Positions 23,366-58,395 of a DNA stretch of 64,000 bases are shown piece after piece. A program made the translations under genes and the position numbers. The stretch lies in UHGV virus genome UHGV-0307316; one strand, 5' to 3'. The notes under the pieces are model-generated. The model made no database searches and was not told the DNA's origin. It was given only the letters and a program-made list of their open reading frames with translations. The number at the start of each line of letters is the position of its first letter. The stretch's first letter is position 1. Source of the stretch: a virus.

Positions 23366-23396
23366 AGGCTCCCGTAAAAAGGAGCCTTTTTTGTTT
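23366..23396. terminator. Bidirectional rho-independent terminator at convergent junction
   Basis: AAGGCTCC-CGTAAAAA-GGAGCCTT hairpin flanked by A-run upstream and T-run downstream; sits between + block end (23359) and - block end (23396). Confidence 0.6.
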
Positions 23397-24295
23397 TACT
23401 TACCTACTGACAGAGGTGCTTCAATCTTCCCTGCATGTTGGTAGTTGTTAATGCCACCAATAAAATCACTTGCAGTGAGATGTTTTAGGTCACTTAAAGT
23501 GTTAAGTGGGATACCAATCTCAAAAGTTGGTGCATGGAACTCTTCATTGTTCATCAGTTCATAAACCTGCTTCATATGGTTCTGATAAATCTGAGTATCT
23601 CCAAAGACACCTATCAAATATCGTGGAGTGTATCCAGTCATCTTACAAAGGACTTCCAGAATAAAACCATAAGATGCAATGTTAAACGGAAGCCCTAAAA
23701 AGGTGTCTACAGAACGCTGATACCATTGTAAGTCAACTTCACCCTCGTTGGTGATATAAATCTGAAACAGAACATGACAAGGTGCTAAAGCCATTGAGTT
23801 TGCTGCAATATCTGCTGCATTCCAAGCGTTAACAAGCATGTAACGGTCTGTGATATCACCCTTCATCTTCGCTACTAAGGTCTCTAACTGGTCTACAACA
23901 CAACCATCATGACCCTCAAAGTTTCTCCACTGAACCCCGTAGATTCTACCACCTGCATCCTCTAACCAGTCTTGTTCAGAGGAATAATTAGAGCTTAACC
24001 AGCGTTTAAAATCATCTGACCAGATAGTCCAGCGTTCCCCATCATTTTCACCCCAAGTACGGTAACGAAGTTCACCAAGTTTATTCTCACCATTCAGGAA
24101 CCATAAAGCTTCCCCAATAACTTGCCGTGTAAACACCTGTTTAGATGTTAAGAGTGGGAAACCAGTTCGCATATCAAAACGAAACTGTGGTGGAGCAAAT
24201 GCAGAGATAACCTCTCCAGTTCGTGTAGTACGCAGTTCACCAACGGATAAAACATGGTTCAGGATATTTTTGTAACTCAAATCAGCTTGTGACAT
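23396..24295 (-). CDS. thyA: Thymidylate synthase
   Basis: N-terminal RTTRTGE motif and active-site PCH (ALAPCHVLFQ) in the translation. Confidence 0.85.
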   Translation of the reverse strand: MSQADLSYKNILNHVLSVGELRTTRTGEVISAFAPPQFRFDMRTGFPLLTSKQVFTRQVIGEALWFLNGENKLGELRYRTWGENDGERWTIWSDDFKRWLSSNYSSEQDWLEDAGGRIYGVQWRNFEGHDGCVVDQLETLVAKMKGDITDRYMLVNAWNAADIAANSMALAPCHVLFQIYITNEGEVDLQWYQRSVDTFLGLPFNIASYGFILEVLCKMTGYTPRYLIGVFGDTQIYQNHMKQVYELMNNEEFHAPTFEIGIPLNTLSDLKHLTASDFIGGINNYQHAGKIEAPLSVGK

Positions 24296-24296
24296 A

Positions 24297-24842
24297 TCAA
24301 AAGTGTCCTTTTACTTGTGGAACATAAATTTCAAAGGTTGCTTTACCATCATCCGATGGCCTTGACTGTACCTTTGCAAATACACGGCTATCATACAGCT
24401 TCTCAAAGAAGTTTTCAAAAGGTAAATGCACAGTGGCCTCTTCAGTAACTTTATGGAAGACTGTATGGAACACCACACCAGCATACGGTAAAGCATTGAC
24501 AAGGACACCTGCACCACCAATTACAAAGACATCTTCATCAATAGAGCTATCAAGATACTTCAAAAATGCTCCAAATGACTCTTTACTGGCTTTAGCATAC
24601 ATTACATCATCTTTGCCAAAGTCTATGCCTAAGTATGGTACAGAATTTGTTAAGATTAGGTTTGCACGTTCTGGTAGAGGTTTACTACCCAGAGTCTTAA
24701 AAGTCTCATTACCCATCACTACTAAGTTATTTTTAGTGAGTCTCTTAAACTCTTGCATGTCCTGTTTATGTCGAGGCCACGGCATACCAGTTGGAGTACC
24801 AAACTCACCATTTTCACCACTTGCAAAGATTAATTTAATCAT
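24297..24842 (-). CDS. Dihydrofolate reductase
   Basis: N-terminal IFA..NGEFG..MPW and VVMGNETFKTLG..PLPER motifs; adjacent to thyA. Confidence 0.8.
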   Translation of the reverse strand: MIKLIFASGENGEFGTPTGMPWPRHKQDMQEFKRLTKNNLVVMGNETFKTLGSKPLPERANLILTNSVPYLGIDFGKDDVMYAKASKESFGAFLKYLDSSIDEDVFVIGGAGVLVNALPYAGVVFHTVFHKVTEEATVHLPFENFFEKLYDSRVFAKVQSRPSDDGKATFEIYVPQVKGHF

Positions 24843-25099
24843 TTTGTAAATCCTTTCTTAATGAACCAGTTGATAACACTCTTCACAACTTTACTACGAT
24901 GGTAGATAAAATGTGGAGAGGGTTGGTATGAACCATAAGCCCAGAAAGCGATAATTTCATTACACACTGTGCATCGGGTACTTTCTTCAGCAATATGACC
25001 GTTAACTATTTCACTTACCTCACCTTGTAAGTCTGTACACCCACAATGTGGACAACGGATAGGTGTTCCATCAGACTCATAGCAGTGTTCAATTTTCAT
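24839..25099 (-). CDS. Zinc-ribbon protein (hypothetical)
   Basis: CPHCGC ... CTVCN cysteine pairs. Confidence 0.35.
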   Translation of the reverse strand: MKIEHCYESDGTPIRCPHCGCTDLQGEVSEIVNGHIAEESTRCTVCNEIIAFWAYGSYQPSPHFIYHRSKVVKSVINWFIKKGFTK

Positions 25100-25615
25100 C
25101 TATTTAACCTCAAAAACTGGTTCAAGAACCAATATAAAGTCTACACAGTCATCTTCTTCATCCAGAATACCATCAAAGTTCTTAGGTACAAAGTCGAAGA
25201 GACTCATAGAATATCGGTCAGAAGTAACCCTGATAGTGTTCCCTAGATTCTCTACAGTTAATATTGTACGGCTTTCTGTTACCTCACTTAGAAGATTACT
25301 CACAAAGTCATCTAAGAAGTGTTTCATCAGTGACTTGAAGCCTTTAGGGTAATCTGTACCAGAGTATGTTTCAATCTGAGGAACAAGCTTAACATTTATA
25401 CTAGTCTTTGTTAAGAACGTTTTAGAGAACATGCTATCAGGTAGCTTACAAACAGTCTTTCCAGTACCTTCATGTTCAATCTCAACAAAACCAGCTTCGT
25501 CGCCACATGTAACTATTTTAAAAGATGCTTCATTCTCATACTGTGAAGCCATAAACTTTTTAAGCATCTCTTTAAGGAAATCTGCATGAGCATCTTGTAA
25601 GTAGACATCAATCAT
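25100..25615 (-). CDS. Hypothetical protein
   Basis: 171 aa ORF in - strand operon. Confidence 0.35.
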   Translation of the reverse strand: MIDVYLQDAHADFLKEMLKKFMASQYENEASFKIVTCGDEAGFVEIEHEGTGKTVCKLPDSMFSKTFLTKTSINVKLVPQIETYSGTDYPKGFKSLMKHFLDDFVSNLLSEVTESRTILTVENLGNTIRVTSDRYSMSLFDFVPKNFDGILDEEDDCVDFILVLEPVFEVK

Positions 25616-25628
25616 AGTTAATCACCTA

Positions 25629-25988
25629 TTATGGGAACAGACACTTAATGTCATCGTTTTTGAAAACGAAACTTGTGTAGTTGTGACCATCAACATCCAA
25701 CCAAACAGCCTGAACATCTACACCATCAATATTCTGGTAAAGCTCTTTAATGAAGTGGTCTTTCACAAACTGACTGCTAGTGGTTTCCAGCTTGATGTTT
25801 GAGATTGCTGAACCTACAGCCATATAACCCATGACACGTTTCTTCTCAGTATGCTTAATCTTACCATCTTTGTAAGCCATAATGAGATTGGAGAGAATCT
25901 TCACACCATAATACTTTTCAAGGTGAGTAGGTACACCGTAAAAGCCTAATGCGAAGTTTTCAGAGTGGATAATGTTTTCACGTTTCAT
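25629..25988 (-). CDS. Hypothetical protein
   Basis: 119 aa ORF in - strand operon. Confidence 0.35.
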   Translation of the reverse strand: MKRENIIHSENFALGFYGVPTHLEKYYGVKILSNLIMAYKDGKIKHTEKKRVMGYMAVGSAISNIKLETTSSQFVKDHFIKELYQNIDGVDVQAVWLDVDGHNYTSFVFKNDDIKCLFP

Positions 25989-25989
25989 A

Positions 25990-26319
25990 TTAATCTGCCA
26001 ACCTTAAATTAAAATTAACACCAAATTTTTCACATACTTCCAACATATACTCAAGGGAGACATTACCAGTGAGATGAATTATGTTGGACACACGAGCCTG
26101 AGAGATACCACAAATTTTAGCAACTTGCTCTTGAGAAAGACCTCTGGATTTAATCTCTCTCTTAAAACGATGTGCAACGAAGTCTCTCATTTCGTCTACA
26201 TCCATTGGACAAATATAACTCTCCATTTCAGCCTCTCTATCAGCCTCCCAATCATCTTGTGGGGCATAAGGGTCAAAAACCTCATTCATCTTTCTTCTTC
26301 CGTTTGCGTGAAGTATCAA
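25990..26319 (-). CDS. HTH (XRE-like) DNA-binding protein
   Basis: Helix-turn-helix signature GLSQEQVAKICGISQARVSNI in C-terminal half. Confidence 0.5.
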   Translation of the reverse strand: MILHANGRRKMNEVFDPYAPQDDWEADREAEMESYICPMDVDEMRDFVAHRFKREIKSRGLSQEQVAKICGISQARVSNIIHLTGNVSLEYMLEVCEKFGVNFNLRLAD

Positions 26320-26494
26320 TTAATGAGTCTATGTTAGTAGCCCTGACCTTTTCACGTTCATCGTTAAGATAATCATCAAGAGCCTTTTCAATCTGTGAAT
26401 CATCTTGACAGATAACTGTAAAGACTGTAAAGCCGTCTGTATCGTCAATTATCTTACCATAACCGCTTCTGGGATGTAACTTTTTAAGAGCCAT
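26282..26494 (-). CDS. Hypothetical small protein
   Basis: 70 aa ORF; first gene downstream of repeat module A on - strand operon path. Confidence 0.3.
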   Translation of the reverse strand: MALKKLHPRSGYGKIIDDTDGFTVFTVICQDDSQIEKALDDYLNDEREKVRATNIDSLIDTSRKRKKKDE

Positions 26495-26495
26495 A

Positions 26496-26879
26496 TCAAA
26501 TACCTGTGCAGCTTCTGTTTTCTAAGAAATACTCAACACCATACATAGCTTTTTGCATCAAATCTTCTTTAAACTGAATACGATGATTAAGCATAGCCTG
26601 TACATCAATATCATCATGGTGCTTCTCTTTAATATTTGCAGATTGCAGGAAATACTCTGCAAGAACACGATACTGATAGTCAGTTACCTTGTCAGTCATC
26701 TCTGTTAAAGACTCTTCAGAGATTGGTTTAAGTAACTCACCATTAGCCAAAGCAACACCTTTAACAATCTGACAAGTGTCTTCTGGAACACCTGATAAGT
26801 CCACATTTGGAAGTTCTGTTGCATTGACTGGTAAATTCATTGCCATAACCATTGCAGCAGCTAATAAAATCTTTTTCAT
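26496..26879 (-). CDS. Secreted/periplasmic protein (signal peptide)
   Basis: N-terminus MKKILLAAAMVMAMNLPVNA with A-x-A cleavage-type site. Confidence 0.45.
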   Translation of the reverse strand: MKKILLAAAMVMAMNLPVNATELPNVDLSGVPEDTCQIVKGVALANGELLKPISEESLTEMTDKVTDYQYRVLAEYFLQSANIKEKHHDDIDVQAMLNHRIQFKEDLMQKAMYGVEYFLENRSCTGI

Positions 26880-26923
26880 AATGACCTCAAAGTTATATTG
26901 AATTTTGTATTACATTGAGTATA

Positions 26924-26952
26924 AAAATAAGCTATAACACCTGACTTGTCAA
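26924..26952 (-). promoter_or_regulatory. Candidate sigma70-like promoter for 26879 gene (TTGACAAG -35 type)
   Basis: On - strand: TTGACAAG, 17-nt spacer, TATTTT about 45 nt upstream of the start codon. Confidence 0.3.
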
Positions 26953-26996
26953 CAGACTTTATAGCTTATTTGGCAGATTTTTTATAAGGCTACTGC

Positions 26997-27390
26997 CATC
27001 CTTCCATACCACACCTCACCCAACCATACCATGCCTTACCAGACCGCACCTTGCCTCATTAAAAGACCCTCTTAAAAGACCTTTTAAAAAGGTAAGTCTC
27101 ATTTTAATGTAGCTGAGACTAACTACCCGCACCGAACCTCACCTGACCTGACCGCGCCATACCTAACCGCGCCTTACCACACCTCACTTAAAAACCCTAT
27201 GAGATACTCTATCGAATATAATTTAAAGACTCTTAAGTGATGTAATCGAATTTTTATGTAGCTCCGATTAACTACCCGCACTTTACCAAACCTCACCCTA
27301 CCCTACCAGACCTTACCTAACCGCGCCGTACCTCATTAAAAGACCCTCTTAAAGACCTTTTAAAAAGGAGCCTCCGAAGAGGCTACCTAG
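26997..27390. repeat. Intergenic repeat module A (two sub-copies): phased CC/ACC 5- and 10-bp repeats plus conserved hairpin cores
   Basis: Cores CATTAAAAGACCCTCTTAAAAGACCTTTTAAAAAGG and TAAGTCTCATTTTAATGTAGCTGAGACTAACTACCC; ACC every 5 bp across 27121-27185; paralogous to 28510-28790. Confidence 0.8.
27362..27386 (-). terminator. Rho-independent terminator for - strand gene 27396-27836
   Basis: On - strand: AGCCTC-TTCG-GAGGCT hairpin followed by CCTTTTT. Confidence 0.55.
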
Positions 27391-27395
27391 TCAAC

Positions 27396-27836
27396 TTAGA
27401 AAGGTTTTCTACGTTGCTTGTTAATGTTAGCTTTCATAGCAGCTAAATGGTTTTGCTGTTCAATTAGTCGTGAACGTTCTTGATGGCTAAGTACCATAGT
27501 GTTCACATTCTCAATCGCTTGAGTGGCTTGCTTTAAAGCACGACCAATCTTACCAGACATTTTACGTTTTGCAATAGTTGCTTGATGCTTAGGTTCAACC
27601 ACACGATAACCAACACCCATTGAAGCAACCAGATAAATCTTCTCTTCTTTAAGAAGCTTCTCAATAAACTTCTCAAGTCGATTTAAGCGTGTAAGTGCGT
27701 AAGCTTTCATTTCATCTTCGTACTTAACAATGTCACCTTGATAAGTTGGCTTCACAATACCTAAGAAGGTATCCATCTCAGAGTGTGATACAGTGTCACC
27801 GTAACTAAACTTTGCTGCTAATGCTTTTGTATTCAT
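27396..27836 (-). CDS. Hypothetical protein (repeat-bracketed cassette)
   Basis: 146 aa ORF; basic C-terminus; flanked by repeat modules. Confidence 0.4.
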   Translation of the reverse strand: MNTKALAAKFSYGDTVSHSEMDTFLGIVKPTYQGDIVKYEDEMKAYALTRLNRLEKFIEKLLKEEKIYLVASMGVGYRVVEPKHQATIAKRKMSGKIGRALKQATQAIENVNTMVLSHQERSRLIEQQNHLAAMKANINKQRRKPF

Positions 27837-27838
27837 AA

Positions 27839-28444
<606 letters not shown>

Positions 28445-28509
28445 TTAGTTGATTGTTAAGTTGTTTGTAAAGAACCCTCAACAGAAGACTCTTTAGAAAC
28501 TTGGTAGAT

Positions 28510-28790
28510 TTTTAACGTGGATACTACCATCCACCCATACCGTGCCACACCACACCGGACCGTACCATGCCCAACCCTACTACACCAGACCTTATTAAAA
28601 GACCCTCTCCAAAGACCTTTTAAAAAGGTAAGTCTCATTTTAATGTAGCTGAGACTAACTACCCATACATTACCGCACCATATTATACCCTACCCCACCA
28701 TACTTCACTGCACCGAGCCACGCATTACATCACTTAAAAAACCTTTTCAAAGACTCTTAAGTGATGCTGGTGAGTACCCGTTGGTTTATG
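28510..28790. repeat. Intergenic repeat module B (paralog of module A)
   Basis: Shares the core GACCTTTTAAAAAGGTAAGTCTCATTTTAATGTAGCTGAGACTAACTACCC (28614-28664, identical to 27078-27128) and ATTAAAAGACCCTCT, plus CC/ACC-phased tracts and CACTTAA...TTAAGTG hairpin. Confidence 0.8.
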
Positions 28791-28830
28791 CTGCTCAGTA
28801 TACTCACCAAATTTTCTATGTCAACAACTT

Positions 28831-29967
28831 TTATTCGTAGTCTCGAATAACGAGACCAACAGGGAACTGTAAAGAACCCTTACGAGTCATCTTCTGGAAC
28901 TGAACCGTTAAAGGTTTCCCGATAAACTCTTCAGGATGCTCAGCAAGATACTGTTTCTTCTCGTGTGTAGTTTTCCATGAAACATCTACAAAGACGTTAG
29001 GAAGAGTCTCTACAACGAACTTACCATGACCACGCTTATCAGTCTTTACACCAGTCACTTTAAACTCTTCAGTGTGCATCTTCTTGTGCTTAATCAAGAA
29101 GTATGAACGGTGACCACACTCATAGAAAGATTCTTCAGAGATTGAACGGTACATTGCACCTTCAAACTTAGCTTCAACCCACTTATCATGAGCTTCATCA
29201 AACTCTTCCCAAGAATTTACACGGATAGTCTGTACAGGAACAACTCTACAGGTATCCCCAAGCTCAACAATAGGTGAGTTATCAATAACTTCACGACGCT
29301 CAGGCCAAGATTTTGAATTGTCACAGATATCATACCAGTAGAATTTAAGAAGGTGACGGTCTGGATTGTCAGCATTCTTAATCATAGATACAATATCTTC
29401 TAAGTCCCAACCATGAGCATAAATCTCTCCGTCAAAGTCTTCAACTTGCGGATGTAATTTAAGCAACAAAAGCAAATCTGGGATTAGTTCTGTTGGAACG
29501 TTGTAAACAGTATTCTCACGAGAATAAGCTGTGAAACTGACTGAATCAGCATCTCTTGAGATTCTACAACGTACACCATCAAGTTTTGGTTGAGCATCAG
29601 CAGGGAACTTCAGATACTTTGCATGACTAACCTTTGCAGCATCATGAGCAAGCTGTACACCTACCTTCTCAGTATTCTGTGCAGACTCTTTTGTGTAAGC
29701 ATAACCTTTACGGTCAACTTGCTTTTTATACTTAGCAGCAACTTCAAAGAGAGCTTGCTGTTCAGCGTTACGCTCATTCTTTTTACCGATGTTCTTAGGC
29801 TCTGCTGTATACTCTTCAAACATCATCTTGCCATTCTCTTTACCATAGGTTGTAATAACTTTGTCACCTACAGCAACACATGACCAGACGTTGAAGGAAC
29901 CATCTTTATTTTGTTTGTACAGAATTGTCATTTTTAACCTCTGAGTGATACCAAGTATTGCAAGCAT
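28831..29967 (-). CDS. ATP-dependent DNA ligase
   Basis: Adenylation motif I KLDGVRC (KxDGxR) in the translation; size as for T7-type ligases. Confidence 0.8.
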   Translation of the reverse strand: MLAILGITQRLKMTILYKQNKDGSFNVWSCVAVGDKVITTYGKENGKMMFEEYTAEPKNIGKKNERNAEQQALFEVAAKYKKQVDRKGYAYTKESAQNTEKVGVQLAHDAAKVSHAKYLKFPADAQPKLDGVRCRISRDADSVSFTAYSRENTVYNVPTELIPDLLLLLKLHPQVEDFDGEIYAHGWDLEDIVSMIKNADNPDRHLLKFYWYDICDNSKSWPERREVIDNSPIVELGDTCRVVPVQTIRVNSWEEFDEAHDKWVEAKFEGAMYRSISEESFYECGHRSYFLIKHKKMHTEEFKVTGVKTDKRGHGKFVVETLPNVFVDVSWKTTHEKKQYLAEHPEEFIGKPLTVQFQKMTRKGSLQFPVGLVIRDYE

Positions 29968-30124
29968 TACATGCGTAAAGCTCTAAGTCATTTTTATCTG
30001 GTTTGTGGAAACAGTTTGACCCACAACGACACCGGAATAGCTTACCATCAACACGAAGAATGAATGTTTCAAGCTCACCATCTTCTGTAAGAACTGCGTT
30101 CTTAAATTTATCTTCTACAGTCAT
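29906..30124 (-). CDS. Zinc-finger small protein (hypothetical)
   Basis: CRCGSNC ... CNACN cysteine pairs. Confidence 0.35.
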   Translation of the reverse strand: MTVEDKFKNAVLTEDGELETFILRVDGKLFRCRCGSNCFHKPDKNDLELYACNACNTWYHSEVKNDNSVQTK

Positions 30125-30327
30125 TTTCTCTTACCACCAATCTCTACGTCGATAACTTGAACATCGCCAGCAACATCAAACTTATGAATGATGCTTTCCA
30201 CAGTGTAAGTCCAACCCTCAATGCGAACCAACTCACCTTCTCGTGGGACGATTGGATTACGTTGAGCTACGGTTGTAGTGGAGTGAACAACATCATAACA
30301 ATAGATGTAGTTTACTAAGACTTCCAT
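30121..30327 (-). CDS. Hypothetical protein (start trimmed to internal Met to avoid overlap with lipoprotein gene)
   Basis: ATG at 30325-30327 (- strand) preceded by GAGG; the longer listed ORF would overlap 30338-30607. Confidence 0.3.
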   Translation of the reverse strand: MEVLVNYIYCYDVVHSTTTVAQRNPIVPREGELVRIEGWTYTVESIIHKFDVAGDVQVIDVEIGGKRK

Positions 30328-30337
30328 CGTGAAAACC

Positions 30338-30607
30338 TCACTCAATAACCGTAGTGTGTGATTGACCATTTTTGCCATAGCTATAAGATGTTGTTGTTTG
30401 GGAGTTTGGACATCTGACAACAACAATATCTCTGCTTATAGCATCACCATGTAACTTGTATACTCTGCAATCTTGCATCTCTGGTGGGAGACTGTAAGAA
30501 GCATTTTTATCTTCATAAGAAGGGTTGCAGCCAGATAGAAAAACAACACCAAGCGCAATTACTGCTTTCCACATAATACTTCCCCAGAGACTGTACATTT
30601 TCTTCAT
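30338..30607 (-). CDS. Small lipoprotein (candidate superinfection-exclusion / receptor-masking protein)
   Basis: Signal peptide with lipobox (VVFLSGC); short mature domain with an additional Cys. Confidence 0.5.
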   Translation of the reverse strand: MKKMYSLWGSIMWKAVIALGVVFLSGCNPSYEDKNASYSLPPEMQDCRVYKLHGDAISRDIVVVRCPNSQTTTSYSYGKNGQSHTTVIE

Positions 30608-30837
30608 AGCAACTCCAGAATATCAATACGTTCACCTTTGAGTACTCCAGTACGGTCTTTTGCAATCTTACCGTCAACAATAAGAATGTGTGCAGACCTT
30701 AAAGTGTCGCTGTTAAAGGCTTTTACGAACTTGCTAGGCATCACTACAATACACATCTCCTGAATCAACTCTGGAGTATAGCAATTGTCGTGAAGTTGCT
30801 GAATAACGTCTGCAAGTGTCATTTTTGATGTCTCCAA
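30604..30837 (-). CDS. Hypothetical protein
   Basis: 77 aa ORF, translationally coupled. Confidence 0.3.
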   Translation of the reverse strand: METSKMTLADVIQQLHDNCYTPELIQEMCIVVMPSKFVKAFNSDTLRSAHILIVDGKIAKDRTGVLKGERIDILELL

Positions 30838-31028
30838 TATTCAATATCTACAAGTTCTTGTGCAATGCTTTTAAGGTTACTTTTGAGGAAAACTTTCTCA
30901 CCACCAGACAGGGAAGTGTTATCAATGAGTCTATTCATTCTCTCAAACAACTTCTGCTTACGGTTCTTGATAGTTTCCTTTGAAGCACCTTTCATCATCG
31001 CTGCATGGGTTCTTCCACGGTGACTCAT
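30819..31028 (-). CDS. Hypothetical small basic protein
   Basis: 69 aa ORF. Confidence 0.3.
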   Translation of the reverse strand: MSHRGRTHAAMMKGASKETIKNRKQKLFERMNRLIDNTSLSGGEKVFLKSNLKSIAQELVDIEYWRHQK

Positions 31029-31079
31029 AAGCCCTCCTATATAAGATATAGTATAAGGTACTCTTCCATGAGCACCTTG

Positions 31080-31595
31080 TCAACTTAGTTTTGCAAACTC
31101 TCCGTGGAGTTTTACAGCAGCTTCACAGTAAGCTTTATGGGCTTCTTCTTCCGTTGTGTATGTTCCTATATGTATAGTCTTACCATTATGGTTAATCTGG
31201 GCTACCCACTTACCAGACTTGCTTCTACTTGTGCCTTTTAAGTTTTTTGATGTTCTAGGTTGTCTCCTATTAGACATGTTCTGTTCTTTTGTGGCCTCTC
31301 TTAAATTGTTCCAAGCGTTATTCAAGCCATCTCCATCTTTGTGGTCAATGTGTTTATCAGGCCACTTGCCTGTCATCCAGAACCAAGCAATTCGGTGATT
31401 ACCTGTCCTGTATCCTAAAATCTGTGTGTGCATATACACACCAGACCTTGTGCGCTTAATTGCTCCGGCTTGGCTTCCAATAACCACCCTACTACTATGT
31501 GGAGGTCTACCAATCCATGTTAAGACCCCTGTTTCGGGGTCATAATCTAACCAAGACTTTAACTGTTCATGTGTGAATCCACAATCTCTCATCAA
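31080..31595 (-). CDS. HNH homing endonuclease with AP2-type DNA-binding domain
   Basis: HNH core IDHKDGDGLNNAWNNLREATKEQN; C-terminal AP2-like segment SKSGKWVAQINHNGKTIHIGTYTTEEEAHKAY; start abuts DNA polymerase stop. Confidence 0.7.
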   Translation of the reverse strand: MMRDCGFTHEQLKSWLDYDPETGVLTWIGRPPHSSRVVIGSQAGAIKRTRSGVYMHTQILGYRTGNHRIAWFWMTGKWPDKHIDHKDGDGLNNAWNNLREATKEQNMSNRRQPRTSKNLKGTSRSKSGKWVAQINHNGKTIHIGTYTTEEEAHKAYCEAAVKLHGEFAKLS

Positions 31596-34321
31596 TGTAC
31601 CTCATACCAGCTCTTACCAACCTTACCTGTGCCAGTTACAAGCGTCTCACTCTTCAAACCTAAATTCTTAGATGCCTGACCATACATCCAGTCAGTTATG
31701 GCTTTAACTTCTTGAGTCATACTTTCTGGGCATTCCCAACTGTTTTCATCGTGGTATGCCAGCAAAAGCCTAGCACCGATTGCTGGTTTTCGTCCATTTA
31801 ATTTTGTCAATCCTTCTTCACATGCTCTTCTACAAGCAAGATTAATTGCCTCATTTTGAATCTGAGCCTCTGAACCCATGAGCAAATAATTCAATAACTT
31901 ATGTGGAGATTTACACCACAACCAAGCTCCAGCAACCTTTACAAAACCACCTTTAGAGATTGCAGCAGTCTTACCAAATACCTCTTCAAGTGCCTTTTTA
32001 GTTGCTTTGTAGTCAGCTTCCAAGTCATCTAGCAGCTTTTTAATTTTAGGCAAACGAATAAAGTAAGTCTGTTTAGTCAGCGCACCTTCCTGAGTAGTTG
32101 CAGCTTTAATCGTCTTAGCAAACTTCTCATCACCTGCACCGAACAGCAGTGCATAGATACCATTCTTAGCTTTCTTACGACCCTTGCTAATCTCATGAAG
32201 AAGATTCTCATCCTGAGTAGCTCGACAAGTCAAGATGTCCTGCTCATCGTTCAAGTTAAAGTAAATACTGTTCAGTGTATGTGCATCAGTCCCTGAATAG
32301 ACAACGTACAGGTCATTCTCAGAGTCATAGCGAAGGTACTTATCAATCTCTGGGTTGAGGTACTCATCAAAGTGTTTACAGTAATAGCGTCCATCTTCTT
32401 GACGAATGAACTCAATTTCTTCTTTACCTTGCGTTACCGCTTTGGTGAAGTCTTTATCACCCATAAAGTTACAAAGAAGAACTAGCTGGGCTGAGTTCAT
32501 GTCTACAGAGACAACGTTAGTACCTTCCTCACAAATCCACACTGCCCTCATTGGTTCCCCATAGACAGCAGCACCAGACGGTACGTTTACAATACCATAC
32601 TGTGTCATACGTCCAGTTGAAGTACCAAACACCATTGCACCAGCACTAAGGCGACCATCAGGACGAATCTGGTTCAACCAACCTTTTTCATCATCCTTTG
32701 AGTTCTCAATAGTTCTGCGTCGGTGCATCAAAGTGTAGTATTTAGCAATCTTCTGTCCAAGCTCACCTTCAATCGTATCGTAAGATGATTCAGTAAGTTT
32801 TGGTGAAGTACGGATTAAGCAAGGCTCAAGCAAATCTGTGTACTTCTTCACAGACCAGTTATGCTCAATGTACTGGACGCCTTCGTGTTCAACATAACTC
32901 AAACCACACCGCTCAACCATTTCCTGCCACTTAGGATGCTTTGTAATCATCTTTTTATTGTCTTTGAAACGACAAACTTTGACAGGGCGACCATCAGAGT
33001 CTTTCTTGTAGTTCCAGTCATCTGGAATCCAACCAACTGATTTCAAGTAGTCTTTAACAACTGCTACCTGAGTCATACGAGAAACTTCAAACTCAATTGG
33101 TGTATATGGTGCATCAATCAAACCTGTGTAGCGACTTGACTCAAGTTCAAAGTGGTTAACAACGTGGCTGTTATAGTACTTCACAGTTTTGACTGTTTTT
33201 ACTGGCTTCCAGTCTTTGCATTTCTTACCAATCTTTGCGTTCAACTCATTGCAAATTGCACGAGCATCCTTCATTGCTACAAAGCCTTCCTTGTACTCTT
33301 CACCAGTTACAGAGTTGGTTGGTGTATAGCAATTCCTTTTTTCAATGTTAAAAATCTTTGTAGTTGGCTTACCAAATGGTTTGATTTCGTATGTCTGCAT
33401 CTCGCCATTACGTACCTGCTGACGATACTTTGTCTTAGGGTACTTGGTAATTCTTTTCAGTCCATCTGCATGACCAAATGTTTCAACATACTCATTCCAA
33501 GCTTTTGCAAACTCTTCTCCAGTGACTTTACCTTTGGTCTTAATAGTTGGAGGTAGATGTGGTTCAACCTCTGAAGCAAGCTCATTAGTCAACTTGTCAA
33601 GTTCCTTTACATGGAACTCCATAAGCTCTTTATCAGCTTTCCAACCATTGATAGCTTGTTGACTCATCCAGAAAGATGTTTCTTTAGCTCGCATGTAGGT
33701 TTCATAAGTGTCTATGCCACACTTCTTAAGCTTGAGATACTCATTATCAAGTGCCCGTTTAGTTTTGGCGTTAATACGGATATCTTCTACAACACGAGTG
33801 AAGATTTCTGCATTCCACACACCCCAATGTTCAATCTCTGGTTTACGAACACCAACACGAGCACCCCATGCAGCCAAGCCATGAGCACCTTTATAACCCT
33901 TTGGAGTTGGTCTATCCATCCACTGAACACGAGACTGGATAAGAGAATCCTGAAAGAAATTACTCCACGGCTTACACTTTGGATTATCAAAGTTCCATAA
34001 ATCCGGTGCAATGTGATTGAAAACCCACCAGTCATAACCTAGACCATTATGAATGCAAAGACGTTTTGCCTTTAACGCAAACTCAATACCTTCACGTAAG
34101 CCACCCTTAATGTACTTGGTATACTTGTGACCGAGGATAGGCTCATCTGTAAAGACCCATACAGGTGGCTCTTCATCGTCAGATTTATAGTCTGCGAAAG
34201 CCATTACGTGCACTTTAGTGAACTCAAGGAGTAAACCATCAGTTTCTGTATCACCAACTAAATGTAAGTTTTTAAAATCTACGTTTTCCATTTTTACTCC
34301 CTCTAAAATCATTAACCTCAT
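31592..34321 (-). CDS. DNA polymerase, family A (T7 gp5-like) with 3'-5' exonuclease domain
   Basis: Exo I VGDTETDGL; Pol motif A VSVDMNSAQLVLL; motif B KKAKNGIYALLFGAG; motif C AYHDE. Confidence 0.9.
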   Translation of the reverse strand: MRLMILEGVKMENVDFKNLHLVGDTETDGLLLEFTKVHVMAFADYKSDDEEPPVWVFTDEPILGHKYTKYIKGGLREGIEFALKAKRLCIHNGLGYDWWVFNHIAPDLWNFDNPKCKPWSNFFQDSLIQSRVQWMDRPTPKGYKGAHGLAAWGARVGVRKPEIEHWGVWNAEIFTRVVEDIRINAKTKRALDNEYLKLKKCGIDTYETYMRAKETSFWMSQQAINGWKADKELMEFHVKELDKLTNELASEVEPHLPPTIKTKGKVTGEEFAKAWNEYVETFGHADGLKRITKYPKTKYRQQVRNGEMQTYEIKPFGKPTTKIFNIEKRNCYTPTNSVTGEEYKEGFVAMKDARAICNELNAKIGKKCKDWKPVKTVKTVKYYNSHVVNHFELESSRYTGLIDAPYTPIEFEVSRMTQVAVVKDYLKSVGWIPDDWNYKKDSDGRPVKVCRFKDNKKMITKHPKWQEMVERCGLSYVEHEGVQYIEHNWSVKKYTDLLEPCLIRTSPKLTESSYDTIEGELGQKIAKYYTLMHRRRTIENSKDDEKGWLNQIRPDGRLSAGAMVFGTSTGRMTQYGIVNVPSGAAVYGEPMRAVWICEEGTNVVSVDMNSAQLVLLCNFMGDKDFTKAVTQGKEEIEFIRQEDGRYYCKHFDEYLNPEIDKYLRYDSENDLYVVYSGTDAHTLNSIYFNLNDEQDILTCRATQDENLLHEISKGRKKAKNGIYALLFGAGDEKFAKTIKAATTQEGALTKQTYFIRLPKIKKLLDDLEADYKATKKALEEVFGKTAAISKGGFVKVAGAWLWCKSPHKLLNYLLMGSEAQIQNEAINLACRRACEEGLTKLNGRKPAIGARLLLAYHDENSWECPESMTQEVKAITDWMYGQASKNLGLKSETLVTGTGKVGKSWYEVH

Positions 34322-34548
34322 ACATTACTGCAAAAAATTATAAAAAGCAAGTTGACAATGCACTTGACAAGGTGTTAATCTTTGCGAAGTGGGTTTTTAC
34401 TTAAAAGGTTACTTAACAGTTTAACTATACAGATACTTTAAATCTCTTAAAAGATTATTTAATAGCTTTTAAAAAGCTTTAAAGTATAACGTATAGAATA
34501 CGTTAAGATAAAAGATTAAAACTTAATAGTTACTTAAAAGAGGCTTAC
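34322..34548. promoter_or_regulatory. Divergent AT-rich control region between the - and + replication blocks
   Basis: Tandem TTGACA (34352, 34364), perfect palindrome AACGTATAGAATACGTT (~34490-34506), near-palindrome AGCTTTTAAAAAGCT, repeated CTTAAAAG. Confidence 0.5.
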
Positions 34549-34971
34549 ATGCAGAAAATGTTTGTTCACCCAGACATAGCTGACTTTGTTAGAGCTTTGC
34601 AGAAGTTGGAAGAACTTGACATTGCTGCTCAACGGGAATATGCTCACCATCACAGGAGAATGGTTGATATACAACATGAAATAGAGTTGTCTGAAAACTA
34701 TGAAGATGACTTAAAATGCTCTGTATTTGAGCATATGAAAGATGTTGCTACAGCAAGACGTAAAGCTAAAGACACAGTTGCTTTACTGGATTCTCTTAAA
34801 AAGAGGTTGCAAAGTGGTACAGACCTGTGTAATCTAGCGTCACTGATTAACGATGTTGAAACTTCTTGGGATAGGCACTATTATCCACGTTCTGAAAAGA
34901 CACTTGACTTTTCTTCATCAGAAAACTTAAAATGTTCTAGAAAGAAACTTAACCAACTGAGAGAGAAATAA
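34549..34971 (+). CDS. Hypothetical protein
   Basis: 140 aa ORF, first gene of + block 3. Confidence 0.35.
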   Translation: MQKMFVHPDIADFVRALQKLEELDIAAQREYAHHHRRMVDIQHEIELSENYEDDLKCSVFEHMKDVATARRKAKDTVALLDSLKKRLQSGTDLCNLASLINDVETSWDRHYYPRSEKTLDFSSSENLKCSRKKLNQLREK

Positions 34972-34972
34972 T

Positions 34973-35785
34973 ATGAATATCAATGTGGAACAGATGCTTG
35001 AAGAGAAAGGTGTTGATGAAGCATTCTTAATCAATGCCGTAGAAAGCATGGCTATGATTCTTCGTGGAAATAACTACACAGAACAGTTTATGCCTGCAAG
35101 CTACAACTTACCTGAAGACAAGTCTGATAGTAGTGCTTTTGCAGAGCAGGTTAATATGATGCTGTGTGACAAAACGCTTGCTTTAGCATCTATCGTTGTA
35201 GGTGTCGATGCTCTTGCAGAGTTCATTTTTTATGAGATGCAGAAAAATGACTATATTGCCATGACATCTGAAGAAAAAGACTCGCTGCTGCTCTTAGATA
35301 ATGATGAGCTAGTTGGCCTGTTAATTTCTTCAACGAGTGCTGTTATGGCTGCTCTTGAGAAGCGTATGAATGAGAAGTTGTCACGGTATGAAAAACTTGA
35401 TTGGGGCGTAGAAGAATTAAACCCACGAATCAAAGAGATTATCCAGCAAACCAAAGCTTCTTTGGAAGAAGCTGTGAAAGATGATTATGTAGCTGGCATA
35501 GAACCACTACAGGTGAAAGTTGCATTGATGATGCCAGCTATCTCTACGATGATGAATATCGTTGCATTAATCCAGCTTTCACAGATGATGGGTACAACCA
35601 TCGAGTTCATTGAGAGTATGACTGGTGGTGTCAGTATGCAAGCAATCAATGATGTTTTGGTGAGCATTGGAGCTTCAATCATTGAAGAGAAACTGCGCAT
35701 TAACTTTGGTGACGATTTTGTGAAGCAAATCGCAGCTATGGCTGAAAAAGAACACTCACAGATTACCACTGAACAACTGCACTGA
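34973..35785 (+). CDS. Hypothetical protein
   Basis: 270 aa ORF. Confidence 0.4.
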   Translation: MNINVEQMLEEKGVDEAFLINAVESMAMILRGNNYTEQFMPASYNLPEDKSDSSAFAEQVNMMLCDKTLALASIVVGVDALAEFIFYEMQKNDYIAMTSEEKDSLLLLDNDELVGLLISSTSAVMAALEKRMNEKLSRYEKLDWGVEELNPRIKEIIQQTKASLEEAVKDDYVAGIEPLQVKVALMMPAISTMMNIVALIQLSQMMGTTIEFIESMTGGVSMQAINDVLVSIGASIIEEKLRINFGDDFVKQIAAMAEKEHSQITTEQLH

Positions 35786-49632: not shown

Positions 49633-49642
49633 AACTTGACAA

Positions 49643-49681
49643 GGTGATGTGGGTCTTGATAGGCTTACATCACCTTTTTTA
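49643..49681 (+). terminator. Rho-independent terminator after nrdD
   Basis: GGTGATGT ... ACATCACC hairpin followed by TTTTTT. Confidence 0.55.
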
Positions 49682-49786
49682 TTGGATGTTAGATATGGCA
49701 GAAAGTATTATTGGGTTGTTCATAGGTTCTGTCTCACTAGGGTTCTTTTTAGGACTCTCTTATTGTGAATTGAAAGGTAAGTTAAA

Positions 49787-58365: not shown

Positions 58366-58395
58366 TTGACAAGGGGCTTCAAAGCCCCTTAGAAT
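58366..58395 (+). promoter_or_regulatory. Sigma70-like promoter with terminator-like hairpin in the spacer
   Basis: TTGACAAG (58366-58373), 18-nt spacer containing palindrome AGGGGCTTCAAAGCCCCT, TAGAAT (58390-58395). Confidence 0.45.

Follow-up and report, generated by a model that had tools for sequence, protein, structure and literature searches.

The locus studied here has a counterpart in phage Felix O1, whose genome paper assumed divergent promoters between genes 96 (polymerase) and 97 and found no obvious consensus promoter between them (PMC3185647). According to the same paper, Felix O1 has neither an RNA polymerase gene nor genes for known polymerase modifiers, and its temporal control is not understood; by reverse transcription PCR, the gene 96 transcript appears within 5 min, and genes 96 and 97 peak at 25 min, which puts transcription of both genes in the early to middle period (PMC3185647). 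In this gap, the GenBank records of phages AYO145A and ASO1A annotate promoters that were predicted computationally. Here we analysed a stretch of 64,000 nucleotides of UHGV virus genome UHGV-0307316 (the window), which belongs to a Felixounavirus, that is, a Felix O1-like coliphage; the 3.5 kb around the gap are 96–99.8% identical to many Felixounavirus genomes. The gap separates the leftward gene for a PolA-type DNA polymerase from a rightward replication operon and is the sole divergent junction within the window. The original interpretation held up in part, and did so for the divergent control region itself: promoter-grade elements occur in both directions, are conserved across genera and sit at that junction. 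The region is a genuine feature under functional constraint, but it belongs to a familiar type and had already been presumed to exist. We read it as a pair of divergent sigma-70 promoters combined with an array of short boxes for predicted protein binding, with a probability of about 0.6. Taken separately, the back-to-back host-type sigma-70 promoters, here called P_L (leftward) and P_R (rightward), are likely, and the reading of the boxes as a DNA-level protein-binding array that controls rightward expression is a tentative prediction, somewhat short of even odds.

The tandem TTGACA hexamers reported originally are present at 34352 and 34364, 12 bp apart. Two TTGACA in the 257-bp region compare with an expectation of 0.04, and one of 2,000 dinucleotide-preserving shuffles of this region (26% GC) reached two. 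The first hexamer is the predicted -35 element of P_R (Table 1). The predicted -10 element is of the extended type, the TG at 34373–34374 being the last two bases of the 11-mer TTGACAAGGTG; it is invariant in the alignment as T-A-n-T-C-T (TAGTCT in Mooglevirus), and its T1, A2 and T6 are kept across all lineages (TAGTCT, TAGGCT, TACATT). P_R is kept at 17–18-bp spacing in 6/6 genomes from five lineages, including the unalignable Arno18 and Kolesnikvirus, in which a single TTGACA-N17-TAnnnT stands in its place. P_R is also annotated as a prediction in the AYO145A record. Two ordinary promoters, one for each TTGACA, were rejected: only the first hexamer has a -10 at the right distance, and no TAnnnT lies 16–18 bp from the second TTGACA in any of the three copies of the cassette described below.

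On the other strand, the -35 hexamer of P_L lies 1 bp from that of P_R. In five lineages, P_L takes the form TTGCTT-N17-TA[AG][TG]GT, its -10 variants (TAATGT, TAAGGT, TAGTGT and TAGGGT) being invariant at positions 1, 2, 5 and 6 and variable at 3 and 4, and its spacer always 17 bp long in five different sequences. Conserved hexamers around a spacer that drifts in sequence but not in length are the textbook mark of a sigma-70 promoter, and we read P_L as one; it is the sole TTGnnn-N16–18-(T/C)AnnnT match on the leftward strand in each of the five lineages. The Pectobacterium phage Arno18 and Kolesnikvirus phi63_307 carry a leftward TTGAC(C/T)-N17-(C/T)AnnnT back-to-back with the rightward promoter; EAP4 gave no leftward promoter match in the short stretch scanned. 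Other candidates for leftward initiation were discarded. A perfect TATAAT (34342–34337) is confined to Felixounavirus and has no -35 at 16–18 bp, and the promoter annotated in ASO1A, TTAAGA-N15-TATAGT (~34424–34450), is unlikely, its conserved portion being the third box of the array, CTATACAG. A T4-type MotA middle promoter would have its MotA box (tTGCTTtA) centred at -30 and 11–13 bp from the -10, whereas TTGCTT of P_L lies at the ordinary 17-bp -35 distance; the Felix O1 authors report no MotA/AsiA-type proteins (PMC3185647).

The left border of the region depends on the polymerase start codon. The polymerase frame offers three ATGs, at 34321, 34312 and 34291, and only the last has a strong Shine-Dalgarno sequence (GAGGGAG, 5-nt spacing). 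This GAGGGAG and ATG 34291 are invariant in the alignments, the ATGs at 34312 and 34321 are not conserved, and the ATG equivalent to 34291 is the annotated polymerase start in Suspvirus and Mooglevirus. The predicted leftward transcript start lies downstream of ATGs 34321 and 34312 and upstream of ATG 34291; a start at ~34315 would give a 24-nt leader. On the grounds of the conserved Shine-Dalgarno sequence, the annotation in the two other genera and the position downstream of the predicted promoter, the most likely start of the DNA polymerase is ATG 34291 and not 34321, with a 2,700-nt coding sequence running down to 31592. The gap, originally given as 227 bp, has that length if the polymerase starts at ATG 34321; with the likely start it is therefore 257 bp (34292–34548). 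Many Felixounavirus records (for example, ASO1A, AYO145A and KhF3) place the start at the 34312-equivalent ATG, with a 2,721-nt coding sequence.

We aligned the region across Felixounavirus, Suspvirus, Mooglevirus and an intermediate lineage, L058. Third-codon positions of the two flanking genes are 51–67% identical between the window and the other genera, as against 91–98% between genera for the promoter block (34343–34396) and 80–82% for the leader (34397–34548); the control region is changing at a far lower rate than synonymous sites. Within the genus, 21 distinct sequences have 14 variable sites in 257 bp, none of them in the hexamers, the boxes, the inverted repeat at 34487–34505 or the Shine-Dalgarno sequences (binomial probability ~1e-4, calculated post hoc), and in these 21 sequences ~40% of the third-codon positions of the polymerase gene are variable.

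Table 1. Features of the control region and its surroundings in the window (promoter elements, starts and boxes as predicted).
Feature	Position	Strand	Remarks
Structural block	1–23359	+	gene map
Block ending in the PolA-type DNA polymerase	23396–34321	-	gene map
Likely DNA polymerase start, ATG 34291–34289, with Shine-Dalgarno GAGGGAG	34289–34303	-	Shine-Dalgarno is the reverse complement of 34297–34303
P_L -10, TAATGT	34322–34327	-	predicted start ~34313–34316
P_L -35, TTGCTT	34345–34350	-	17 bp from -10; invariant
P_R upstream A-tract, AAAAAG	34342–34347	+	invariant across genera; resembles promoter-proximal half of UP element
P_R -35, TTGACA	34352–34357	+	6/6 consensus; invariant in all compared lineages
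Second TTGACA, within 11-mer TTGACAAGGTG	34364–34374	+	inside P_R spacer; invariant across three genera
P_R -10, TAATCT, preceded by TGt	34376–34381	+	18-bp spacer; predicted start ~34388
Invariant block GAAGTGGGTTTT	34385–34396	+	spans predicted rightward start and first transcribed bases
Boxes 1–3: CTTAAAAG 34400, CTTAACAG 34412, CTATACAG 34425	34400–34432	+	spaced 12–13 bp
Boxes 4–5: CTTAAAAG 34446, TTTAATAG 34458	34446–34465	+	
Inverted repeat AGCTTTT-A-AAAAGCT	34464–34478	+	overlaps box 6; outer AGC/GCT conserved
Box 6: palindromic CTTTAAAG	34477–34484	+	overlaps inverted repeat 34464–34478
Inverted repeat TAACGTAT-AGA-ATACGTTA	34487–34505	+	8-bp arms; holds -10-like TAGAAT
Boxes 7–8: CTTAATAG 34522, CTTAAAAG 34533	34522–34543	+	
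Block with 140-aa protein, deoxynucleoside monophosphate kinase, primase/helicase and exonuclease	34549 onward	+	gene map
First rightward operon gene, 140-aa helical protein	34549–34971	+	Felix01p180 family, phrog_4039

The predicted P_R transcript would begin with an untranslated leader of ~160 nt (21% GC over 34400–34549), in which there is no ATG and no open reading frame downstream of the rightward start. This leader carries eight same-strand CTTAAnAG-type boxes, spaced mostly 11–13 bp apart and beginning at ~+12; the repeated CTTAAAAG described originally, at 34400, 34446 and 34533, belongs to them. Box 8 runs into the Shine-Dalgarno sequence GAGG (34540–34543) of the first rightward gene. 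The 257-bp region holds seven YTTWANAG boxes, with 0.6 expected and 0/2,000 shuffles reaching seven, statistics that are inflated because the box definition was derived from the tested region. Box columns are invariant across genera and the bases between boxes vary. Arno18 has six consecutive boxes at 12–14 bp and Kolesnikvirus two pairs, and the first box begins 42–48 bp after the -35 in every lineage. Two known types of element were considered for the leader and set aside. A lambda-type nut site was considered at 34444, where CTCTTAAAA resembles the lambda nutL boxA (boxA being CGCTCTTA-like); its CTC is not conserved (CTC, CCC and GTC across genera) and no boxB follows. Host regulators that use direct repeats phased at 10–11 bp (ArcA, PhoP, CpxR and OmpR) came into view because the TTAACA repeats at 11 bp in the phage terminal repeat resemble the reverse of ArcA sites (TGTTAA); the C of TTAACA, which would be the critical base, is unconserved in the leader boxes.

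The arrangement of doubled -35 and box leader recurs as a whole. Together with the remaining 23 kb of a near-identical genome (OZ035744.1), here called L033, the genome totals ~87 kb and contains three exact tandem TTGACA pairs, all intergenic: the one described above, L033 15207/15219 and L033 4702/4715. Each pair has an upstream A-tract, one -10, placed to suit its first TTGACA, and, from ~+12 onward, CT(T)AAAAG boxes; the first 120 transcribed bases, counted from the predicted starts, hold 6, 4 and 2 boxes at the tandem promoters versus 0–1 at 14 single-TTGACA promoters. The cassette at L033 15129–15356 (~77.9–78.2 kb of OZ035744.1) occupies the other divergent junction and consists of AAAAAGttGTTGACAAagtaCTTGACAAGGTG-TAGGCT followed by CTTAAAAG-type boxes, with a hairpin, AGATATC-N6-GATATCT, and a leftward TTGACT-N17-TACCAT 25 bp away. 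It is 93% identical across three genera, including the tandem TTGACA, the boxes and the hairpin. The third (L033 4702–4890), in the early-gene block, reads TTGACAATACCCCTTGACATTGGTAACTT, then GAGGGGGTTTA, which resembles the GAAGTGGGTTTT block, and then the boxes CTAAAAGG, CTTAAAAG and CTTTATAG in a leader of ~150 nt.

The sole other box cluster in the genome fills a 1.5-kb gene-free stretch between convergent terminators (L033 6066–7585). TAACA occurs there 27 times on one strand versus 6 on the other, with a dominant spacing of 11 bp, and its copies lie within CTTAACAG, CTAACAAG and TTAACAAG units in arrays that are all on one strand. Identical direct terminal repeats of 581 and 613 bp in two independent records map to L033 6545–7135, and a PhageTerm analysis backs the terminal repeats for one of the two (PMC11737134). 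A promoter scan found no strong promoter in the terminal-repeat stretch, which makes DNA the likelier level of action for those boxes at least; and because the same box family fills this repeat, in which the scan gave no strong promoter, we prefer action at the DNA level for the leader boxes too. It is a further and much bolder step, to which we give low credence, that all CTTRAMAG-type boxes (the -35-like CTTGACAAG, the leader boxes CTTAAAAG and CTTAACAG, and the CTTAACAG/CTAACAAG arrays with 11-bp phasing in the 0.6-kb terminal repeat) make up one genome-wide family of cis-elements read by a single protein, possibly one that recognizes -35-like DNA. If this were true, one box family would tie the genome ends to control of the three early promoters with a tandem -35, perhaps also to replication primed by transcription from them, and would be the Felix O1-type counterpart of the T7 CCTAAAG repeats.

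On the preferred reading of divergent promoters with a box array, host sigma-70 RNA polymerase would initiate both ways from the back-to-back P_L and P_R, P_L serving the DNA polymerase gene and P_R the operon for replication and nucleotide metabolism. The boxes, with the box-like second TTGACA, would form a binding array for a phage or host protein. This protein would govern when, or how strongly, the rightward genes are expressed, probably by acting on DNA just downstream of the start. The sequence elements, their conservation and the repeated cassette are observed, while the transcript starts, the identity of the polymerase and the binding of a protein are inferred.

The best-placed alternative, in our view an unlikely one, moves the activity of the leader into RNA. 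Boxes and hairpins would then work in the rightward messenger RNA, within its 5′ untranslated leader of 160 nt, where they might be an AU-rich landing pad for the ribosome or S1 that enhances translation, the site of an autogenous translational repressor, or RNase E processing or stability signals; the stem-loop at 34487–34505 would be structural. The boxes are on the sense strand in 3/3 cassettes, the last of them merges with the Shine-Dalgarno sequence, and a leader free of ATG and open reading frame folds better than shuffles (z = -2.2) and contains two AGAUU motifs, which resemble RNase E sites. In addition, the seven pairs of the 34487–34505 stem are kept across eight sequences, none broken and two changed on both sides in a compensatory manner. 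In the RNAalifold consensus, covariation nevertheless contributes little (-1.3 kcal/mol), with the other pairs invariant or inconsistent, and the stem is lost in Arno18 and Kolesnikvirus while the TAGAAT/TATAAT core stays. No Rfam family matches: with Rfam 15 at permissive thresholds the best match to the region scored 21 bits against a cutoff of 109 (E = 2.5), and none reached the gathering score in the whole window. A single-sequence fold suggested that the 5′ end of the transcript pairs over a long range with the Shine-Dalgarno sequence; the alignment gives this no support, and it was dropped. The boxes are found at 12/90 gene starts of the phage, mostly by chance, and so are not a general ribosome-binding-site feature, and their family abounds in the terminal repeat, in which the scan gave no strong promoter.

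Less probable again is a transcription-activated origin, at which P_R RNA in the 21% GC leader would prime synthesis by the adjacent T7-like polymerase and primase/helicase. The setting would suit such an origin: ~150 bp of 21% GC directly after a strong predicted promoter with a doubled -35, a site between the PolA-type polymerase and the primase/helicase operon, strong conservation of the whole region, and a G-cluster at the predicted transcript start (GUGGG here, GAGGGGG at L033 4702). Cumulative GC skew also reaches its minimum at the divergent junction, but this minimum is fully accounted for by the switch of transcription strand, and because skew tracks gene orientation it cannot separate the readings; the arms of such an origin would be 11 kb versus 75 kb. 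Further, the two -35 hexamers share one -10 and do not make two complete promoters, and the cassette has three copies, among them copies upstream of the transfer RNA and early gene blocks. The region has no DnaA box (≤1 mismatch), no long iterons and no tandem repeat (Tandem Repeats Finder gave no match on it); its boxes are 8 bp with unconserved spacers, unlike an iteron- or DnaA-type origin, where several iterons of 17–22 bp or DnaA boxes, or both, adjoin an initiator gene.

The inverted repeats of the leader had been described as operator-like palindromes. One of them, AACGTATAGAATACGTT, is present at 34488–34504 with TAGAAT embedded in it (34494–34499), but it is an interrupted inverted repeat with an asymmetric 3-bp centre and not a perfect 17-bp palindrome; the other, AGCTTTTAAAAAGCT at 34464–34478, was called a near-palindrome and is actually a perfect 7+1+7 repeat, the interior of which varies without compensation. 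An 8-bp inverted-repeat arm in the 257-bp region is not unusual (218/2,000 shuffles reach it), and the presence of three inverted repeats whose arms reach 7 bp or more is marginal (85/2,000). Both repeats are single-copy in the window; the nearest relatives there of 34487–34505 have three mismatches and lie inside genes. A -10-like hexamer (TAGAAT, TATAAT or TAACAT) is kept 37–54 nt upstream of the ATG in all five lineages and in three genera sits in the loop of the 34487–34505 repeat, whose symmetry is absent in Arno18 and Kolesnikvirus. Against the use of TAGAAT as the -10 of an internal promoter, it has no usable -35 in the window. The helix-turn-helix protein that was to bind the palindromes (placed at 25990–26319) is a real XRE-type protein (25993–26319; Pfam HTH_3, E = 6e-10; PHROG 'transcriptional regulator'), and nothing ties it to them.

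That the palindromes are operators of a dimeric repressor such as this XRE-type protein, controlling the TTGACAAG class of promoters and an internal TAGAAT promoter, is very unlikely: the 34487–34505 repeat is of operator size (8-3-8), is centred on the conserved -10-like TAGAAT and has its symmetry held by two compensatory changes, but palindromes of such size are expected by chance at this composition, the symmetry is lost in distant lineages, and both repeats, 75–115 bp downstream of the predicted rightward start (at about +75 to +117 of P_R), lie off any P_R or P_L -35 or -10, which makes them unlike classical repressor operators of the Cro/CI type, where a palindromic site, usually in several copies, overlaps the promoter core.

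Several further points weigh against divergent promoters with a box array. The P_R -10 matches TATAAT at 3/6 positions only, and the P_L -35 matches TTGACA at 3/6 (TTG kept). A generic promoter scan of 33800–35000 found no promoter enrichment and did not call P_R, which it misses because it demands 4/6 matches in the -10. Besides the inflated shuffle statistics, loose boxes are common genome-wide, on both strands and also in genes, at ~0.3–0.5 per 120 bp, and the leader boxes CTTAAAAG are joined to the terminal-repeat boxes CTTAACAG and CTAACAAG only by their likeness and common phasing. Every box of the transcribed leader is in sense orientation, which would suit a role in RNA just as well. 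Searches with the first downstream gene gave no clue to a box-binding protein. Finally, the literature yields no transcription-start or transcriptome data for Felix O1 or Felixounavirus and no start mapping for any Ounavirinae phage; the searched text of a PhageMaP preprint on Bas63 does not mention the region.

We also followed the extended motif TTGACAAG, which had been put forward as the mark of a phage-wide promoter class. It does recur at 49636, 55402 and 58366 on the + strand and at 26945 on the - strand, but as part of 11 copies in the window, ~6 of which are in genes. The enrichment is modest (11 versus 5.2 ± 2.3 expected); four of the 11 fall in the non-coding 4.6%, all co-oriented with downstream genes. 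A phage-wide set does exist in the form of ~17 intergenic predicted promoters, TTGAC(A/T)-N16–18-TAnnnT, which include the sites named before, but the AG extension after TTGACA does not define it, occurring at ~5/17. An upstream A-tract, AAAAGnnG, is commoner and sits before most intergenic TTGACA promoters of the phage. The general set follows the ordinary sigma-70 consensus with an AAAAGnnG upstream tract, and what sets a distinct class apart is the doubled -35 and box leader, not the AG after TTGACA.

The 11-mer TTGACAAGGTG (expected 0.1 times per window) recurs at 49636 and at 31073 (-). At both sites, and at the related 58366 (TTGACAAGGGGCTTCAAAGCCCCTTAGAAT), the -35 runs directly into a hairpin that starts with AAGG; the hairpin at 49636 is a terminator (AAGGTGATGT...ACATCACCTT-T6). 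These sites, with candidate spans of 49636–49690, 31029–31083 (-) and 58366–58395, look like overlapping terminator–promoter units.

In a simple gene map the window falls into the three blocks given in Table 1, in agreement with annotated related records. The genes for the deoxynucleoside monophosphate kinase and the primase/helicase come after the first rightward gene (34549–34971). The product of that gene has no Pfam match, belongs to a PHROG family without assigned function and has homologues only in Ounavirinae; its AlphaFold model is a helical hairpin (pLDDT, the predicted local distance difference test score, of 72), and every Foldseek match to the PDB had E > 0.1. A role as a regulator or as a single-stranded DNA-binding protein was considered for it, and these Pfam, PHROG and AlphaFold/Foldseek searches were uninformative.

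Two observations concern HNH-type genes next to the polymerase: an HNH endonuclease with an AP2 DNA-binding domain, of the homing-endonuclease type, lies directly downstream of the polymerase gene (31083–31595, -), and Kolesnikvirus has another, different HNH-like gene as an insertion on the upstream side, where it separates the polymerase from the control region. Elsewhere in the leftward block, the gaps 26880–27395 and 28639–28830 (- sense) contain ~5 copies of a 107–140-nt non-coding unit. Each has a run of pentamers, (GGTNN)n, for example GGTTAGGTAAGGTCTGGTAGGGTAGGGTGAGGTTTGGTAA, and a 3′ end that reads GGGTAGTTA(A/G)TC..AGCTACAT(T/A)AAAAT, and each is preceded by the palindrome ACCTTTTAAAAAGGT. 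The copy number differs among relatives, the units are unannotated in other records, and they have no Rfam or transfer RNA match; a transfer RNA scan of the window likewise gave no match.

Three findings go beyond the original prediction: the array of eight boxes, the corrected start of the polymerase and the fact that the whole cassette recurs. No general principle is changed, divergent host-type promoters with nearby repeats being ordinary phage biology; what is added is precise promoter assignments, the corrected start, and a class of three members that may be linked to the terminal repeat. Typing, biocontrol and therapy of Salmonella and E. coli make wide use of Felix O1-like phages. For these phages the analysis predicts start sites that can be tested, both for the polymerase gene and for the replication operon, and corrects the polymerase start in many Felixounavirus records. 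The small promoter class, with its doubled -35 and box leader and three members per genome, is an obvious place to seek the switch from early to middle expression.

Among known systems, the sigma-70 early promoters of virulent coliphages (T7 A1–A3 and T5 early) share with P_R a near-consensus TTGACA, a 17–18-bp spacer, TAnnnT, TG at -15/-14 and an upstream A-tract. The comparison is also in keeping with Felix O1 having no RNA polymerase of its own and with transcription of the flanking genes within 5 min of infection (PMC3185647). They differ in that a second perfect TTGACA lies in the spacer and a long conserved box leader follows here, where the starts are predicted. The primary origin of T7 consists of the tandem promoters 1.1A/1.1B and an AT-rich region, and T4 oriF and oriG of a promoter with a downstream unwinding element. 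The locus resembles these origins in that a strong predicted promoter with a doubled upstream element is followed by a very AT-rich stretch, beside genes of a T7-like replisome; in contrast to them, the predicted promoters here are of the host type, not those of a phage RNA polymerase, there is one -10, and the cassette has three copies. Cro/CI-type XRE operators are matched by the size of the 8-3-8 repeat, its symmetry in three genera and the presence of an XRE-type helix-turn-helix gene, whereas the repeat is single-copy, off the promoter core, not above chance and lost in distant relatives. Roadblock-type operator arrays downstream of a promoter, and iteron-like repeats, resemble the eight short one-strand direct repeats at 11–13 bp, although the boxes here are only 8 bp, degenerate and in transcribed DNA.

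The left end of T7 (L039) offers a further parallel. Its bases 17–345 contain many CCTAAAG copies, often 12–14 bp apart, comparable to the phased CTTAACAG-type boxes here; CCTAAAG, CTTAAAG and CTTAAAAG repeats occur in and beside the T7 terminal repeat and upstream of A1, with ACTTAAAG and ACTTAAAAG (415–470) just upstream of that promoter. We know of no established function for these T7 repeats. T7 even shares the exact 12-mer CTTAAAAGATTA with the window (34446–34457), which may be chance in AT-rich DNA. The T7 repeats differ from the boxes in consensus and in phasing, with no homology beyond the short motif, and the likeness is a resemblance, not a demonstrated relationship, between two phages that both have such repeats in or beside a terminal repeat and at early promoters.

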